Source: an uncultured Chloroflexia bacterium
GTDB lineage: Bacteria > Chloroflexota > Anaerolineae > Anaerolineales > Anaerolineaceae
NCBI GenBank assembly: GCA_963704755.1
Contig: OY969938.1
Coordinates: forward strand, 1,140,001 to 1,172,000
DNA length: 32,000 nucleotides
Direction: 5' to 3'
The translations under genes and the position numbers were made by a program. The notes beneath the pieces are model-generated. The model did no database searches, was not told where the DNA came from, and saw nothing but the letters and a program-made list of their open reading frames with translations. This document shows positions 14,143 to 32,000 of the stretch, piece by piece (position 1 is the first letter of the stretch; each line of letters opens with the position of its first letter).

Positions 14143-14478
14143 GTTAATGCAAAATCTCTCCCGTCCAATGGGGCGAGAGAGATTTCCCGTGGTGCCACCC
14201 AATTTAGGCTGCTCGCTTAACCAAAAACCCCGTCGCGACGACGACGGGGATAAAAAGCCAGCCTCACTTTTGGGGTACGTCGGCCTTGTGACCGGTTATA
14301 CCCTTTGCCTTGATAACGGTGGCAGCTCCGGCACAGGCTACTCGACAACCCTTTCGCCTTGCAGCTCCGAGAACCATTCAGCGCCAGTGTACGGGTGGCA
14401 TTCTCACCGTTCAGCCGCTCTCTGGACCGCCGGTCCAGCGCCTACTATTTCTCTTCACAGCTTTTCACGTTCAATTGT
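14143..14478 (-). promoter_or_regulatory. T-box leader (tRNA-Trp-responsive riboswitch) of the trp operon
   Basis: Read on the minus strand:
- GA/AGUA motifs: TGAAGAGAAATAGTA.
- AG box: CCAGAGAGC.
- GGTGAGAA distal motif.
- Specifier-loop GAA-TGG (UGG at 14376..14374).
- Stem III CCCCGTCG...CGACGGGG.
- T-box sequence AATTGGGTGGCACCACGGG (14186-14204).
- Terminator AAATCTCTCTCG...CGGGAGAGATTTT (14151-14185), directly before the trpE RBS. Confidence 0.85.
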
Positions 14479-16932: not shown

Positions 16933-17260
16933 GGCATCTTCCTTTTTTTTTGCGTTCCTAACTTTCGCCGGATCTGCAATTTTAATAAAATGCATGAAGG
17001 TCGATTAGCCATCCGATCAAATTAAAAATTGGCTTTGTGATAAAAGCCAACGAACCACACACAACCATATGTGACCCACGGCAACCTGGCAATCATGGTC
17101 ATTTTCATGACGTTAGACCCATGGCTTTGCGTCACCGGCTTTCGCCGATTTTGCCTTTATCGGATAGGGAATAATACTAATTACTATAATACCACAAACA
17201 AACCAAAAAAGCAAGGGGAGCGAATTGCCTCACAATTAATCTTACTTTGCGAAATAACGT

Positions 17261-23513: not shown

Positions 23514-25892
23514 CTACCGGGAATGCACCTCAAATTTACCCGCCAGGTCCAGCGCTTCTGCACAGGCCGCATCGTAGCGCATGCGCTGGCCGGCCTGCCA
23601 GGCCTCGTCGAATTCCGTATCCAACCCCTCTCGTGCCCACCGGATGGTTTGATCGAGGCGCTTCTGTTCGACATTGTAGCGCACATACCCGGCCCCAATC
23701 GAATCGATCAAAGCCAGGGATGCAGCCAGGAGCCGCACGGACCGGGTTGAAAGGCATTGGTGGACTGAAATTTCTGCAATCCCGCGGATAAAATAACCGG
23801 TATTGGCCTTATCGTCGATATCCATGGCAATTTGAAGCCCATCCGCGAAAGCCCGAATCGCGCCCTTTTCATCACCCGCAGAGACACCCGCTACACCGAA
23901 ATTATATAAGGCCTGGTGAAGCACAATCCGGTCGCCGGACTGCCTGGCTATGGCTAATCCTTCCCCTAAAATCTTGAGACCCGCCTCGACTTTCCCTTGC
24001 AGATACAGCGTGAAACCCAAATAACTGGTCGAAAAAGCCAGGCACCAGGGTTCATCGAAATCGGGTGAAATTATAGCGTTGATTTTCGAGAAGGATTCCT
24101 GGGCCCTCGCATAGTCTCCCTGGCTGAGCAGGCTGACGCCCAGCATCAACAAGCCAATCACCCAGGTGCGCAGATCGTTTTGGCTGCTGCTAAGGTCGAT
24201 GGCGGCCTGGCAGTGCTGGATCGCCTGCGGATATTCGCCCGAGGCCCAGGCCATGCTGCCAATGGTCAATTCAGCCTGGGACAAATGTATGGCGGTCAAT
24301 TCTCCGGGTTGGGCAGATCTCAACACCGTTTCCATCCATTGGCGCGCCTCGTTGTGCATCCCACGCACCCACCAGAACCGCCATAATGCCCAGGTGAAAC
24401 GAACCGCGGGTTCCCATTGGCCATGATCCAGCCAAAAATCCACCGCGGACCGCAGGTTGTTTCGGTCGCGGCTTAAAAGCGGGAACCAGTATTTCTGGCC
24501 GGCTTTTTGTAGATCAGGCTGGGCTGTTTCGGCTAACGACAGGAAATAGGCGGCATGCGCGGACTGGAGGATCTCTTTTTCACCGGAATTATCCAACCGC
24601 TCGATTCCAAAGGCACGGATCGTTTCCAGCATCTGCAGACGCGGTTGGTCGCCATCCAGGGTCATTTGCACCAGGTTCTTTTGCACCAGCGATTCGATTC
24701 GGGCAAAAACAGTTCCACCCAAACCCTGGCTGCACGCGGATTCGACCGCCTCCAAGGCGGCTCCGCCCGAAAAAACGGCCAGGCGGCGGAACAGAGTTTG
24801 TTCTTCGGGCGCGAGCAGGTCGTAACTCCAGGCAATCGTATCCCGCATGGTTTGCTGGCGGTTCGGCAGGTCGCGGGCGCCGCCCACCAGAATTTGCAAT
24901 TGATGGCTCAAGCGGTCGAGCAGCGCCTGGGGTGGCAGCAGCGCGATCCGGGCCGCGGCCAGTTCAATCGCCAGGGGCAGTCCATCCAGGCGCATACAAA
25001 TCTGTGCAATTGCCGCAGTATTGCTCTCGGTTAAAGCAAAATCCGGGCGGGCAGCCTGGGCGCGCAGCACGAAAAGCCGGATCGCGTCGAATTGGGATGC
25101 ATCTTGAAGCGCCAGGGGCTCATCCGAATTGGGCACCATGAGCGACGGAACCTGATAGGCTTGCTCTCCGCGTACGTGCAAGGCTTCCCGGCTGGTGACC
25201 AAAATTTTCACCTGCGGGCAATTTTGCAGAATCGCAACGATAGAAACTGCCGCCGGAACAACGTGTTCGAAGTTATCCAGCACCAGTAAAAATGACTTAT
25301 TGCGCAGCCAGGTCACCAGGCTCTGCAGCGGAGGAATATTCCGCATTTCATCCAGGCCCAAAGATTGGGCGATCGTCGGCAGTACCAGGGCTGCCTCCCG
25401 AACAGGCGCCAGAGAAATAAAAACGGCCCCATCTTGAAAGGCGTCCTGGCAAATGGACACGACCTCAATGGATAATCGTGTTTTGCCGACCCCGCCCGGG
25501 CCGGTCAGGGTCAGCAGGCGGATATCGGGCCGCAGCAATAATTGTTGGATCACAGCCGCTTCTGTGGCGCGGCCCACCAGCCCGGTCAGCGGCCGGGGAA
25601 TCGCACCGTTGAATTGGACTGAGGTCAGTTTTGCTGCAGCCGGCTCATCCTCTGGGCCAGAATTCGCATTGGTCTCAACCAGGAGATCCTGCTCTTCCGG
25701 CCGGAGCGCCAGGGCTTCGGCCAGCATGCGGATTGTGGACGGGTATGGATGCCGGCGTTCGCCGCGCTCCAGGGCGCTGATTGCATTAGCGGATAACCCG
25801 GCCTTCTCCGCCAGTGATTCCTGGCTCAAACCGGCCCGTTTGCGGTACTGGCGTAACAATGCGGCGAAAGTGTTTGGACGGTCTTGGTTCAT
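23514..25892 (-). CDS. XRE-type HTH / STAND (NB-ARC-like) P-loop ATPase / TPR-repeat regulator
   Basis: Start at the ATG at 25892 (MNQDRPN). HTH LSQESLAEKAGLSANAISALERGER. Walker A LTGPGGVGKTRL. Walker B FLLVLDNFEHV. Helical repeat C-terminal half. Confidence 0.88.
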   Translation of the reverse strand: MNQDRPNTFAALLRQYRKRAGLSQESLAEKAGLSANAISALERGERRHPYPSTIRMLAEALALRPEEQDLLVETNANSGPEDEPAAAKLTSVQFNGAIPRPLTGLVGRATEAAVIQQLLLRPDIRLLTLTGPGGVGKTRLSIEVVSICQDAFQDGAVFISLAPVREAALVLPTIAQSLGLDEMRNIPPLQSLVTWLRNKSFLLVLDNFEHVVPAAVSIVAILQNCPQVKILVTSREALHVRGEQAYQVPSLMVPNSDEPLALQDASQFDAIRLFVLRAQAARPDFALTESNTAAIAQICMRLDGLPLAIELAAARIALLPPQALLDRLSHQLQILVGGARDLPNRQQTMRDTIAWSYDLLAPEEQTLFRRLAVFSGGAALEAVESACSQGLGGTVFARIESLVQKNLVQMTLDGDQPRLQMLETIRAFGIERLDNSGEKEILQSAHAAYFLSLAETAQPDLQKAGQKYWFPLLSRDRNNLRSAVDFWLDHGQWEPAVRFTWALWRFWWVRGMHNEARQWMETVLRSAQPGELTAIHLSQAELTIGSMAWASGEYPQAIQHCQAAIDLSSSQNDLRTWVIGLLMLGVSLLSQGDYARAQESFSKINAIISPDFDEPWCLAFSTSYLGFTLYLQGKVEAGLKILGEGLAIARQSGDRIVLHQALYNFGVAGVSAGDEKGAIRAFADGLQIAMDIDDKANTGYFIRGIAEISVHQCLSTRSVRLLAASLALIDSIGAGYVRYNVEQKRLDQTIRWAREGLDTEFDEAWQAGQRMRYDAACAEALDLAGKFEVHSR

Positions 25893-26119
25893 AGTTCGAT
25901 CCGGTGCGCGGCACAACAAACAATCGTTAATCGATCTGTTTAATCAATAATTTCTCACAAAAATTGTATCAGCGCTTGATGGTTGGGTCAACTGTGTGGG
26001 GGATGTAGGGGGAGTGTGCAGGTAGTGTGCGTGGTTTCTGAGGCGCAGAAACTCTAAAATGTTTTCATATCCGGCAAGCAATTGCCATCCAATTTCAAAA
26101 AGCCAAAGGAGATTATCCA

Positions 26120-29707: not shown

Positions 29708-29745
29708 GTTTATCTGTAGCTACACAGCCACTGAAAAGGAACTCT

Positions 29746-29806
29746 GGGGGTGTTATGTTGTTTTTTTGGTGTGTAAAGCACACGAAAAAAACAACATAAC
29801 ACCCCC
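29746..29806. repeat. Long inverted repeat (28-position stem, 1 mismatch; loop TAAAG)
   Basis: GGGGGTGTTATGTTGTTTTTTTGGTGTG taaag CACACGAAAAAAACAACATAACACCCCC. Shares TTTTTTGGTGTG with the hairpin at 2652 and GTTGTTTTT with the hairpin at 31784. Confidence 0.9.
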
Positions 29807-29820
29807 AAATCTTTTAATCT

Positions 29821-29871
29821 GGAAATTGAGGTAGGTGTGGGTGCTATGCACCCACACCTACCTCAATTTCC
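29821..29871. repeat. Perfect 24-bp-stem hairpin (loop TAT)
   Basis: GGAAATTGAGGTAGGTGTGGGTGC tat GCACCCACACCTACCTCAATTTCC. Outer arm GAAATTGAGG is shared with the hairpin at 5487. Confidence 0.9.
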
Positions 29872-29883
29872 ATGTTTAACCTT

Positions 29884-30345: not shown

Positions 30346-30501
30346 ATATTAAAGTTACATTCGTTCAGGAAAATGCCTATTCGACCGGACCTGAAATTAC
30401 CCTAAATATACGGGAATAAATGGATTCTGTTGCACCCTTTTAGCCGAAAGTTAGGTAACACAAAACCACAAAGAAAAGATTCTAATAATTTCCGTACCTT
30501 A

Positions 30502-31128
30502 TCAATTCTGGTTAGCTTTTAGCCAATTCTGCATGTAAGCAATATATTCGGGTGCTGGCATATCGTTTAGATCTTCGTCTGTAAAGCCATGTGCTTTTCT
30601 ACCATCATAAAAGTCAGATGTAAAATCTGTGAAACGGTACCAGATTTGGGTCGGACTATCAATAGCTTTTGAATGATCGATTTCTACCATCCAATTGCGT
30701 ATGCACCTGACTACATCTTCCGGTTCGTCATTGTGGCATTTAACATCTACACCAGATAAATCGGAAATCGCTTTTTGAAAGTCATAGCGCTGACGCTCTA
30801 ATATCAGCATTTTCTTCTCAATTTTATTGAACCGGGAGTATCCGTAATCGATCCCCAATTCAAAGGGCATATTCATACGAAAGAATTCACCCACCGTTGA
30901 AGAGCTACATCGCGAAAGGTCATGGATGGAATAATCAGTCACCTGTATTAATTTGCATATTTTATCGATACGGTTATCTGCTGAATTCAAATACTCAGAG
31001 GCTATTCGTGGAGAAAACCCTAAATAACAGAGCGTAAAAAGTAAAGGACGTAATAGCCCTTTATATTCCTCATCGAAAGGGCAATTAATAAATACCTGGT
31101 TTTCTTGCTTTTCCCCCTTATTTAGCAA
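30502..31128 (-). CDS. TIR-like (Cap12/PycTIR-style Rossmannoid) domain protein with unique C-terminal region
   Basis: TTG start 5 nt after the upstream stop, the only start upstream of the conserved N-terminus. Ordered motifs are QVFINCPFD, YSIHDLS, RMNMPFELG and KKMLILE...ISDLSGVDVKCH. These recall the RxNVxFELG...PSDLxGV signature of the PF10137-type TIR-like domain (from memory). Gene is visibly AT-rich. Confidence 0.7.
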   Translation of the reverse strand: MLNKGEKQENQVFINCPFDEEYKGLLRPLLFTLCYLGFSPRIASEYLNSADNRIDKICKLIQVTDYSIHDLSRCSSSTVGEFFRMNMPFELGIDYGYSRFNKIEKKMLILERQRYDFQKAISDLSGVDVKCHNDEPEDVVRCIRNWMVEIDHSKAIDSPTQIWYRFTDFTSDFYDGRKAHGFTDEDLNDMPAPEYIAYMQNWLKANQN

Positions 31129-31133
31129 CTAAA

Positions 31134-31367
31134 TCACCGTTGATCTTGAGGAGGGAATGGATCGTTCCCGTAAGAATTTTTACTTTGGATGGTTCCGTCC
31201 CGTTTGTGAATAACCAGTTCCGATTTTTGATTGATACTCACCTGCCGTGCCCAAGCCTCGGCTTCGGTTTTGGTCTCAAAATGTTTCGAAGCCCGGTCAG
31301 AGCCGCCCTTGCGAACATTCCAACCGCCGTTTGGCGCAGGTACTACGTGTTGCGTGGTTTTCTTCAT
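31134..31367 (-). CDS. DUF2188-like small protein
   Basis: 77 aa: MKKTTQHVVPAPNGGWNVRKGGSDRASKHFETKTEAEAWARQVSINQKSELVIHKRDGTIQSKNSY. This matches my memory of the DUF2188 pattern (HV.P...GGW.V...G..RA...F.TK.EA...AR....ELvIH..DG.I). Confidence 0.75.
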   Translation of the reverse strand: MKKTTQHVVPAPNGGWNVRKGGSDRASKHFETKTEAEAWARQVSINQKSELVIHKRDGTIQSKNSYGNDPFPPQDQR

Positions 31368-31373
31368 AAGTTA

Positions 31374-31403
31374 ATTATACTTTAACTTTGTTAACGATAT
31401 CAA
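31374..31403 (-). promoter_or_regulatory. Candidate promoter of the AT-rich two-gene cassette (possibly giving leaderless mRNA)
   Basis: Minus strand reads TTGATA (31403..31398), an 18-nt spacer, TATAAT (31379..31374), then 6 nt (taactt) and the ATG. Such matches can arise by chance in AT-rich DNA. Confidence 0.4.
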
Positions 31404-31611
31404 GTCCTTAAACAGGTCAATCACATCAGAATTTATGTCCAATCGTAAGGGATAGAAGAATGCAATTTTTCAAGAAGTGCCTTTTTTGTCGTTGTGTTTT
31501 TTGGACCCATCGCTTGTGGTCCTCTAAACACAGGCCACCAGGATTGCATGAGCAGGTGAGCGATCTCCCGACTGGCCAGAAATACTGCATTGGTAGCCAT
31601 ATGCACCTTTT

Positions 31612-31783: not shown

Positions 31784-31840
31784 AGGGAATTATTGTTGTT
31801 TTTCGCGTGCTGCGCACGTGAAAAACAACAATAATTCCCT
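31784..31840. repeat. Long inverted repeat (27-bp stem with one G-T; loop TGC)
   Basis: AGGGAATTATTGTTGTTTTTCGCGTGC tgc GCACGTGAAAAACAACAATAATTCCCT. Confidence 0.9.
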
Positions 31841-32000
31841 TCCCCGTAAACTGGCTTGAACAGTACCAAAAAATTTCTTATATCCCTGCTGATTGGACAC
31901 AATTTATGATGCGATTACCCCGATTAAGGAGTTCCTGAATTTGCGGACGTATAATAGGATCATTCGGGTGTCCATCTCAAACGAGAATCAAGCTTTCTCA

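Follow-up and report, generated by a model that had tools for sequence, protein, structure and literature searches.

The window analysed here, a stretch of DNA of 32,000 nucleotides, carries on its minus strand a pair of closely spaced genes within an AT-rich islet (Table 1). The upstream gene encodes a 77-aa DUF2188 protein, and the downstream gene, which is initiated with TTG, encodes a 208-aa protein that appears to be TIR-like. The TGA of the DUF2188 gene (31136-31134) and the TTG of its neighbour (31128-31126) are separated by a spacer of 5 nt, and an SD-like GGTGA positioned 5 nt ahead of the TTG overlaps the DUF2188 stop codon, an arrangement that suggests, from the sequence, translational coupling of the two genes. 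Two coupled minus-strand genes of these sizes, with this start codon and this gap, are what the initial annotation had described, and the five motifs that it had listed for the downstream product, QVFINCPFD, YSIHDLS, RMNMPFELG, KKMLILE, and ISDLSGVDVKCH, are all present in that order. Among the loci of related pairs, an SD-like motif was found in 46 of 73.

Table 1. Features of the gene pair and of its products, with positions in the window.
Feature	Position	Strand	Basis
AT-rich islet with the gene pair	30346..31460	n/a	42% GC versus 57% in the rest of the window
Sigma-70-type promoter-like site, TTGATA-N18-TATAAT	31374..31403	(-)	11/12 positions match
DUF2188 gene, 77 aa	31134..31367, stop included	(-)	ATG start, ORF list
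SD-like GGTGA over the DUF2188 stop codon	31134..31138	(-)	read from the sequence
TIR-like gene, 208 aa	30502..31128, stop included	(-)	TTG start, ORF list
TIR-like flavodoxin-fold core, residues 10-135 (beta1 to beta5)	30724..31101	(-)	AF2, Foldseek
Motif R84-M-N86-M-P-F-E90-L-G92, start of helix alpha3 (alphaC)	30853..30879	(-)	alignment, motif comparison
Motif S122-D123-L-S-G126-V-D128	30745..30765	(-)	alignment, motif comparison
C-terminal helical domain, residues 136-208	30505..30723	(-)	AF2

The compositional contrast that had drawn attention to the islet is real, as the GC content of the pair is 41.7% versus 57.0% for the remaining window; along the sequence it lies at 0.37-0.41 over 30350-31250, compared with 0.57-0.63 in the ABC-transporter genes. 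A search of the islet flanks for target-site duplications returned short direct repeats at chance level only, and no tRNA or Rfam elements were found beside the islet. The promoter and leaderless transcript proposed for the pair fared unevenly. The site is there, and its -10 box ends 6 nt ahead of the DUF2188 ATG, a leaderless-type geometry, but 5 promoter-like sites were found in 1.8 kb versus 3.6 +/- 1.9 in shuffles, so that the match is by itself not significant. Moreover, of 73 loci only 8 have a -10 box abutting the start codon, among them the Anaerolineae-type relatives L001, L007, and L041, and the leaderless geometry is thus a trait of the lineage and not of the module.

The smaller protein is readily placed. 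Its assignment to DUF2188 was correct (PF09954, 87.3 bits versus a cutoff of 22, E = 7e-25, profile positions 1-62/62), as were the accessions given for the two families, PF09954 for DUF2188 and PF10137 for CAP12-PCTIR_TIR. The protein also matches phrog_3220 (E = 7e-30) and the two PADLOC HMMs of the candidate PDC-S16, PDLC04941 and PDLC04942 (E = 5e-36 and 8e-36, positions 1-74/75), both of which are about 75 residues in length and match the DUF2188 protein only; a literature search for a publication on PDC-S16 found none. The AF2 model has a beta-beta-beta-alpha-beta-beta topology (pLDDT 84) and a C-terminal tail, SYGNDPxPPxD, that is conserved and of low confidence in the model. Neither in the PDB nor in BFVD did Foldseek find an annotated structure significantly similar to this model; its matches to DUF1508, the Cas1 N-domain, and HicB were weak (HicB3 6U0I, E = 0.25; HicAB 6HPB, E = 0.65; TM ~0.33), and a profile of the DUF2188 alignment (A4) searched against the PDB reached neither 5JN6 nor HicB. 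A SLOG- or Macro-like domain was sought by Pfam and by structure, and none was found. A likeness of DUF2188 to the HicB N-domain has been suggested (PMC13621843). In Mycobacterium prophages, DUF2188 forms the C-terminus of an annotated antitoxin located beside a BrnT-like toxin. Work by Burroughs and Aravind from 2020 is reportedly cited by others for a link between DUF2188 and defence.

The 208-aa protein yielded nothing significant in sequence and profile searches of Pfam, NCBIfam, PADLOC, PHROGs, and the PDB, and no match to PF10137 even at E <= 1. The Pfam and PADLOC searches proposed for the pair place one of its proteins, the 77-aa one being PF09954 and the candidate PDC-S16; its partner falls below the PF10137 threshold and matches no PADLOC model. 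The family of the 208-aa protein comprises more than 3,000 clusters and at least 573 species. In an alignment of 89 diverse members, 31-52% identical to the window protein, PF10137 was the sole Pfam family to be matched recurrently, weakly and in 8 of the 89 (best E = 4.7e-4), and PF01582 (TIR) gave a weak match in two. Alignment of the family with real PF10137 members by hhalign gave E = 0.023, resting on a 14-column core; VFINCPFD, HDLS, and RxNMPFELG of the family are paired with VFVVHGHD, TPDD, and RQNVIFELG of PF10137. The score was above that of 149/150 column shuffles; block shuffles, of which 14/150 reached the real score, preserve the motif and so constitute an invalid null, and the column-shuffle null was used instead. 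With an HMM based on 40 close members of PF10137, the 208-aa family scored no higher than its shuffled or reversed sequences, and this HMM was discarded as too narrow and uninformative.

At the level of structure, the AF2 model of the 208-aa protein (pTM 0.81) combines a flavodoxin-like TIR/NDT fold with a helical domain. The core is ordered beta1-alpha1-beta2-alpha2-beta3-alpha3-beta4-alpha4-beta5-alpha5, and the C-terminal helices occupy residues 136-151, 159-179, 184-188, and 192-205 (pLDDT 88-96). The similarity to a TIR-like/NDT fold that the initial annotation had anticipated for AlphaFold and Foldseek is present with marginal E values (1.4e-3 at best, up to 2e-2), the best matches being MilB (4OHB), the SPARTA TIR (TIR-APAZ), DNPH1, the Cap12 TIR-STING structures 9LMQ and 7UN8, and NDT. 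CheY-like receivers were close behind in the Foldseek list; a receiver identity was rejected on account of this lower placement and the lack of a Response_reg match in either Pfam scan. For the C-terminal ~70 aa, in which nothing familiar had been recognised at the outset, relatives outside the 208-aa family were sought in Pfam and among PDB sequences, and none were found.

The residues that would form the active site are strongly conserved. R84, N86, E90, and G92 are invariant across the 89 diverse members, and S122, D123, and G126 are conserved in at least 90% of them, with D123 nearly invariant. In the model, E90 lies within the helix spanning residues 88-100, and the loop containing R84 and N86 is of low confidence. 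The same combination, R-x-N-x-x-F-E-x-G with (S/T)-D-L-x-G, occurs in PF10137 members, in Cap12 (9LMQ and 7UN8), and in PycTIR (8JSJ), so that the hallmark named for these effectors is true of the family and of its solved structures. R84, N86, E90, and D123 line up with R78, N80, E84, and D110 of SfSTING with identical spacing, S-D123-L-x-G being equivalent to T-D110-L-D-G. In the published SfSTING TIR domain NAD+ is bound by R78 and N80, E84 is the catalytic residue, and D110 is contributed in trans to complete the active site; the R-x-N residues of TIR-STING contact the phosphate and ribose of NAD+. The catalytic Glu of all TIRs and of MilB is located at the start of alphaC (PMC9402430), and the supposed correspondence of the Glu in FELG to this residue is upheld by the alignment and position of E90. 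The TIR-like assignment is supported on modelled fold and predicted active site, the support for TIR homology from sequence being weak.

Compared with Cap12 and PycTIR (PF10137), the 208-aa protein shares the flavodoxin-like TIR fold, both motifs with the same spacing, and a beta1 of the form 'VFI....D', but it lies below the Pfam threshold and is without a STING, SAVED, or cNMP-binding sensor domain. Unlike the effectors of CBASS and Pycsar, it is in no operon with a CD-NTase or pyrimidine cyclase, and it has a unique helical C-domain and an obligate DUF2188 partner.

The pairing, whose conservation the initial annotation had made a point of interest, is strict. Of 86 loci, 84 have DUF2188 directly upstream of the TIR-like gene and in the same orientation; of the other two, one has the order swapped, and in the other DUF2188 lies at a distance of 1.7 kb. 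The stop-to-start gap is between -4 and +14 nt in 66/73 loci, and many of the best matches to the two proteins agree in the length of their longest contig. The protein P0192, which could be taken for a DUF2188-TIR-like fusion, has a truncated N-terminus and a scrambled junction and C-terminus; it looks like a frameshift artefact and was set aside. A third conserved gene was sought in 81 loci and none was found, 497 of 522 neighbour clusters being singletons; an upstream neighbour that recurs in 6 loci was dismissed as a third component, as it consists of generic ABC-transporter ATPases. Neither a cyclase nor a sensor lies beside the window pair, as had been noted from the sequence, and across the 86 loci no cyclase was found among the nearest neighbours of the TIR-like gene. 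In 70/74 loci the pair exceeds its flanks in AT content (median -9 GC points). It resides on 17 plasmids, of which 8 are conjugative, and is spread patchily over many phyla, with a CPR bacterium and an archaeal MAG among its carriers. The genes immediately adjacent are mostly housekeeping genes, defence matches being scattered and showing no strong defence-island enrichment; in one locus a CapP-type regulator is located directly upstream of the pair.

This setting bears on the view that the pair has nothing to do with conflict and encodes a housekeeping or salvage N-glycosidase, a MilB/DNPH1/NDT/LOG-like hydrolase, with a small accessory subunit. Housekeeping neighbours, a family that is both large and strongly conserved, and the place of MilB and DNPH1 at the top of the Foldseek list (TM of 0.6-0.7 for MilB, DNPH1, and the nucleoside 2-deoxyribosyltransferases, normalised to target, with a Glu at the equivalent helix start) would all be accommodated by it. 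We nevertheless consider it very unlikely, as the flanks differ by genome and the homologues are in no recurrent operon, metabolic or otherwise, the GC content is systematically below that of the host, and the plasmid carriage and patchy distribution are those of a mobile module rather than of a biosynthetic or salvage gene. In addition, there is no sequence-level match to MilB, DNPH1, or NDT, the R-x-N motif corresponds to the NAD+-binding residues of TIR-STING, the copy in one complete genome is a pseudogene, and the DUF2188 partner belongs to a family tied to defence and phages.

The two genes differ in their ability to stand alone. The TIR-like gene is accompanied by DUF2188 in 86/86 loci and is absent from the 50,697 phage genomes in which it was sought, whereas DUF2188 without a TIR-like gene was encountered, among the few orphan loci sampled, in a prophage (L090) and in a defence island with Kiwa/PemK/OLD (L091), and also in 32 phage genomes; an example of an orphan phage copy is that of Streptococcus phage Javan264. 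The solitary copies in defence islands and prophages are of the window subfamily and are co-oriented with the repressor. In the complete genome of Pseudoalteromonas CP178626 (L088) the TIR-like gene is broken up among three reading frames next to an intact DUF2188; the break may be a sequencing error. Since DUF2188 accompanied the TIR-like gene in every case and is itself common without it, the putative enzyme would be the dependent and potentially dangerous partner. One could also argue that DUF2188, as PDC-S16, is the actual defence or regulatory gene, with the TIR-like protein as an accessory that is optional or as an adaptor or scaffold that lacks catalysis; the match to a single-gene PADLOC candidate and the solitary copies in defence islands and prophages, with a repressor alongside, are in keeping with this. 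It is, in our estimation, quite improbable, for an optional accessory is difficult to reconcile with the asymmetry just described, and the polar, catalytic-type residues that remain invariant across the 89 members speak for a strongly selected enzyme and against a scaffold.

The organisation of the pair recalls type II toxin-antitoxin systems such as HicAB and the NAD-targeting RES-Xre and MbcTA, in which a small upstream gene is coupled to a larger downstream one. The likeness extends to the mobility, the AT-richness, and the solitary occurrence in variable contexts, and to a small partner that is found as orphans beside a large partner that is always accompanied and at times a pseudogene. 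It ends at DUF2188, in which no DNA-binding domain that could serve autoregulation is recognisable and whose similarity to HicB is not significant, and we know of no described class of TA toxin that has a TIR-like fold.

A recent preprint (bioRxiv 10.64898/2025.12.03.692087) predicts DUF2188 to be the partner of canonical TIRs in Thoeris-type systems, 33 entries of its Table S1 being labelled 'DUF2188'. The initial proposal of an undescribed module must accordingly be tempered, DUF2188 being both PDC-S16 and, in the preprint, a companion of canonical TIRs; the 208-aa family is unannotated. The predicted operons resemble the window pair in having two genes, a TIR and a DUF2188, and an immune role that is predicted only, but their TIRs are 33 proteins with a Pfam-detectable domain of the TIR_2 type, from which the large, Pfam-undetected 208-aa family is distinct. 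The preprint takes DUF2188 to be the effector. Applied to the window, such Thoeris-like signalling would have the TIR-like protein sense infection and make an NAD+-derived signal for DUF2188 to bind as effector or output, and the two-gene architecture is compatible with it. This is, we believe, unlikely, although less so than the housekeeping and accessory readings. Thoeris itself couples a ThsB TIR to a SLOG/Macro effector, whereas the canonical TIR match is confined to the two weak cases mentioned above, and the small DUF2188 fold has neither a SLOG/Macro domain nor any recognisable killing or enzymatic domain. Moreover, the active-site motif belongs with the effector clade of Cap12/PycTIR and not with ThsB-type TIRs, the small gene placed first with translational coupling is the classic antitoxin-toxin order, and the TIR-less orphans of phages and defence islands better suit an inhibitor, a sponge, or a stand-alone role. 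For the family in the window, the evidence thus favours a neutraliser or regulator.

We are inclined, at about an even chance, towards the view that the two genes form a conflict module, complete in itself and moved by horizontal transfer, of the toxin-antitoxin or abortive-infection kind, in which a TIR-type effector is restrained by DUF2188. The 208-aa protein would be an enzyme of the Cap12/PycTIR type, TIR-like but divergent, with an intact predicted active site, and by analogy with those enzymes it would cleave the N-glycosidic bond of NAD+ or a related nucleotide and cause cell arrest. Its helical C-terminal domain would stand where a STING, SAVED, or cNMP sensor is otherwise placed. DUF2188, presumably co-translated with the enzyme, would most likely bind and inactivate it, or else regulate it, and the block would be lifted by some trigger, for instance stress, infection by a phage, or loss of the module. 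The orphan copies in temperate phages may neutralise TIR-type enzymes or may be defence genes themselves. A bolder form of this proposal is rather doubtful: the 208-aa family, with its 573 or more species in most bacterial phyla, would represent unrecognised, very widespread free-standing TIR-type NADases, DUF2188 would be their dedicated inhibitor and serve as a general 'anti-TIR' module for at least two unrelated TIR clades, canonical TIR_2 included, and the temperate-phage orphans would provide counter-defence or prophage-encoded protection.

TIR-domain NADases are central to bacterial, plant, and animal immunity, and, to our knowledge, those known from bacteria are activated via fused sensor domains or partner cyclases. 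A large TIR-type family that has been missed by Pfam, NCBIfam, and PADLOC, is sensor-less, and is always coupled to DUF2188 would, if the restrained-effector proposal is right, imply a new logic of TIR control in which a small protein partner takes the place of a nucleotide ligand. It would also give a first mechanistic role to DUF2188 (PDC-S16, phrog_3220), which is common in temperate phages, and would point to TIR antagonists encoded by phages as a new class. The annotation gap extends to the source genome, where one gene of the pair is uncalled and the other truncated: DUF2188 is absent from the public gene calls, and the call for the TIR-like gene (P0032) starts at Met85, giving a 124-aa fragment that covers the C-terminal 60% of the protein. 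The TTG start of the 208-aa protein agrees with the N-termini of its homologues.

The two coupled minus-strand ORFs described in the initial annotation, an ATG-initiated DUF2188 gene followed by a TTG-initiated TIR-like gene, are present exactly as claimed, with a spacer of 5 nt between the TGA of the former and the TTG of the latter, and an SD-like GGTGA that overlaps the DUF2188 stop codon. The islet is indeed AT-rich, as the pair has a GC content of 41.7% compared with 57.0% for the remaining window, and of 0.37-0.41 versus 0.57-0.63 in the adjoining ABC-transporter genes. A DrrA-type ABC transporter, a small membrane protein and a divergent DUF8201 gene flank the pair, and no defence gene adjoins it in the window, in agreement with the earlier reading. 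The promoter-like TTGATA-N18-TATAAT (11/12 matches) ends 6 nt before the DUF2188 ATG; this leaderless geometry is real in the window but lineage-specific, being found at only 8/73 loci. A perfect short inverted repeat, seen by eye between the -35 and -10 hexamers, could be a candidate operator, though it is too short for significance. In public data the DUF2188 gene is uncalled, its exact 77-aa sequence being absent from a collection of 15 billion proteins, and the TIR-like call starts at Met85, so that the resulting 124-aa fragment (entry P0032) lacks the N-terminal half of the domain.

Features of the window (Rfam scores for RNA elements)
Feature	Position	Strand	Remarks
T-box leader	14166-14467	-	98 bits, E = 1e-20, above gathering score
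c-di-GMP-I riboswitch	17077-17165	-	84 bits, E = 2e-15, above gathering score
HTH(XRE)-NB-ARC-TPR STAND-type protein	23514-25919	-	801 aa; ~4.6 kb from pair
Near-perfect palindrome	29745-29807		arms 27-32 nt, loop 3-5 nt
Near-perfect palindrome	29813-29879		arms and loop in same ranges
TIR-like gene	31128..30502	-	208-aa ORF with all motifs quoted in the initial annotation
DUF2188 gene	31367..31134	-	77-aa ORF
TTAAC-AAA-GTTAA	31378-31394		between promoter hexamers
59-nt inverted repeat	31402-31460 and 31875-31933		arms 78% complementary, 414 nt apart
Near-perfect palindrome	31784-31840		arms and loop in same ranges

The association of the two genes is conserved, as a DUF2188 ORF lies directly upstream and on the same strand in 84/86 loci, the exceptions being one locus where the order is swapped (L015) and one where the genes are 1.7 kb apart (L061). 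The stop-to-start gap is -4 to +14 nt in 66/73 loci (eleven being 4-nt overlaps), and within the sampled loci the 208-aa protein was never encountered without DUF2188. The pairing is thus obligate, and the pair also bears signatures of mobility: it is AT-richer than its flanks in 70/74 loci (median -9 GC points), and 17 plasmids carry it, including 8 that are conjugative. The nearest neighbours are mostly housekeeping genes; a check for consistent embedding in housekeeping operons found 497 of 522 neighbour clusters to be singletons and no conserved third gene, the only recurrent cluster being generic ABC ATPases. Defence matches near the pair (AbiO, Nhi, GajB, PD-T4-6, mad genes, CapP) occur once each. 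The CapP case is a Geobacter sp. MAG (L051, 7105-11155), the only one of about 81 loci where a CapP-like ImmA/IrrE-type metallopeptidase (PADLOC capP, E = 8e-60) is encoded immediately upstream of the pair and co-oriented with it, with a 394-aa uncharacterised ORF downstream; this arrangement echoes the CapH/CapP-associated operon ‘DUF2188 + hypothetical protein’ of Lau et al. (10.1101/2022.04.27.489752). The STAND-type gene of the window is neither adjacent to the pair nor recurrent at other loci, and the HTH is its sole domain with PADLOC matches (capH-like, E = 8e-9).

The 77-aa protein is a bona fide DUF2188 member, as had been proposed (PF09954, E = 7e-25), that covers the PADLOC defence candidate PDC-S16 end to end (E = 5e-36) and matches the phage family phrog_3220 (E = 7e-30). 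In its AlphaFold model a beta-beta-beta-alpha-beta-beta domain is predicted with confidence (pLDDT 84), and the tail after it, SYGNDPxPPxD, is conserved but modelled at low confidence. Foldseek returned no significant annotated neighbour in PDB and BFVD, HicB antitoxins reaching only E = 0.25-0.65; a 2026 paper has proposed a relationship between DUF2188, 5JN6 and the HicB N-domain, with DUF2188 as a possible ‘minimal antitoxin’ (PMC13621843).

The 208-aa protein has no sequence match in Pfam, NCBIfam, PADLOC, PHROG or PDB. Its family is nonetheless large and strongly conserved, with 3,034 clusters at 90% identity and 2,928 representatives at 50%. Its relatives, all named ‘hypothetical protein’ among the matches listed, occur in at least 573 species-representative genomes from Chloroflexota, Acidobacteriota, Latescibacterota, Proteobacteria, Cyanobacteria, Bacteroidota, Chlorobi, Spirochaetota, Thermotogota and Atribacterota, as well as one CPR bacterium and one archaeal MAG. 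Among 89 members with 31-52% identity to the window protein, F13, N15, P17, R53, R84, N86, E90, G92 and D128 are invariant, and C16, D19, H69, D70, S72, R73, S122, D123, G126 and H132 are at least 90% conserved. One metagenomic representative (P0189, 406 aa) is extended at its C-terminus by a region bearing a PD-(D/E)xK-like motif and a weak Mrr_cat match (E = 0.006), and may be a rare TIR-like-nuclease fusion.

The AlphaFold model (pLDDT 80, pTM 0.81) comprises a flavodoxin-like alpha/beta core of five strands (residues 10-135) and a helical C-terminal domain (residues 136-205); E90 lies near the N-terminal end of helix alpha3, and the R84/N86 loop is poorly defined. All Foldseek matches are marginal, with target-normalised TM of 0.6-0.7. 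The best in the PDB is the MilB CMP N-glycosidase (4OHB, E = 1.4e-3) and DNPH1 is also among the top matches, although a housekeeping hydrolase of the MilB/DNPH1 kind is an improbable identity for this protein; the list further includes SPARTA TIR-APAZ, Cap12 TIR-STING (9LMQ, 7UN8), plant TIRs and NDT, with CheY receivers and PurE ranking below. When the 89 members were scanned singly, the sole recurrent Pfam family was PF10137, the CAP12/PycTIR TIR family (8 members, best E = 4.7e-4), and canonical TIR matched 2/89. Genuine PF10137 proteins were retrieved with a consensus query, confirmed by their precomputed Pfam label and aligned; hhalign related the 208-aa family to them at E = 0.023 only, in the expected register (VFINCPFD with VFVVHGHD, YSIHDLS with VLLTPDD, RxNMPFELG with RQNVIFELG), the score resting on a 14-column core and exceeding 149 of 150 column-shuffled nulls. 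A narrow PF10137 HMM did not separate family members from shuffles. The PF10137 profile also matches solved Cap12 TIR-STING and PycTIR chains (9LMQ, 1.8e-9; 7UN8, 1.5e-6; 8JSJ, 1e-4), which show R-D-N-V-V-F-E-F-G and P-(S/T)-D-L-x-G, and the first two of these are shared with the Foldseek list.

In SfSTING, a TIR-STING protein, R78 and N80 coordinate the phosphodiester and ribose of NAD+, E84 is catalytic, and the active site is completed by D110 of the other subunit in the dimer; the catalytic Glu lies on alphaC in all TIR and MilB structures (Morehouse et al. 2022, PMC9402430). The motifs R84-x-N86-x-x-F-E90-x-G and S-D123-L-x-G reproduce R78/N80/E84/D110 with identical spacing, and these are the most conserved positions of the family. 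Together with the marginal TIR/Cap12 structural matches, they uphold the TIR-like claim and make a Cap12/PycTIR-type N-glycosidase active site very probable. The protein is not filed as a PF10137 member because its family is a distinct one that falls below the Pfam threshold.

The two partners differ in their distribution. DUF2188 proteins of the pair's subfamily occur without the enzyme in a prophage, co-oriented with a cI-like repressor and integrase (L090), at a locus adjoining Kiwa, PemK and an OLD-like gene (L091), and in 32 phage genomes (identity up to 62%, mostly temperate Streptococcus phages), likewise on the repressor strand; a search of 50,697 phage genomes did not find the 208-aa protein. 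That DUF2188 is the main actor, and the TIR-like protein an accessory or scaffold, is improbable even so. In Mycobacterium prophages, again without the enzyme, the domain forms the C-terminal part of an annotated antitoxin beside a BrnT-like toxin; in prophiT48-1 (L092, OQ417964.1, 1803-2737) it ends a 197-aa ‘antitoxin’ directly downstream of the toxin gene. In a complete Pseudoalteromonas sp. genome (L088, CP178626.1, 4204-4836) the TIR-like gene, which lies between two IS110 transposase genes, is broken up into three frames alongside an intact DUF2188 identical to that of a metagenomic contig (L089) whose 203-aa partner is intact.

In the best-supported model, held with moderate confidence, the pair is a mobile module of a toxin-antitoxin-like or abortive-infection kind. 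Its effector would be a TIR-type N-glycosidase, most probably an NADase, and the co-translated DUF2188 protein would restrain it, presumably by physical interaction. The analysis establishes how the genes are arranged, that they pair obligately, their mobility signatures, the fold class, the identity of the motifs and the asymmetry seen in orphans; the catalysis, substrate, toxicity, interaction and trigger are what we infer. A signalling pair of the Thoeris kind, in which DUF2188 would be the effector, is unlikely, if less so than the other alternatives; it draws support from operons of canonical TIR and DUF2188 that the Sorek lab has predicted, with 33 TIRs listed (bioRxiv 10.64898/2025.12.03.692087). 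That predicted TIR-DUF2188 association concerns a different TIR clade. The components are of known kinds, a TIR-fold enzyme and a DUF2188/PDC-S16 candidate; what is new is that a TIR-like family of this size has gone unannotated, that it is strictly coupled to DUF2188 instead of a nucleotide sensor, and that the pair shows a toxin-antitoxin-like asymmetry.

Directly upstream of the pair's promoter, within a non-coding stretch of ~670 nt, lies the 59-nt inverted repeat, possibly a MITE-like element or else a sizeable structured region. The three palindromes bracket a segment with a 153-aa membrane-protein gene and the pair; the first and last have related sequences (families D1 and I8), and all three may be REP-like elements or insertion boundaries.
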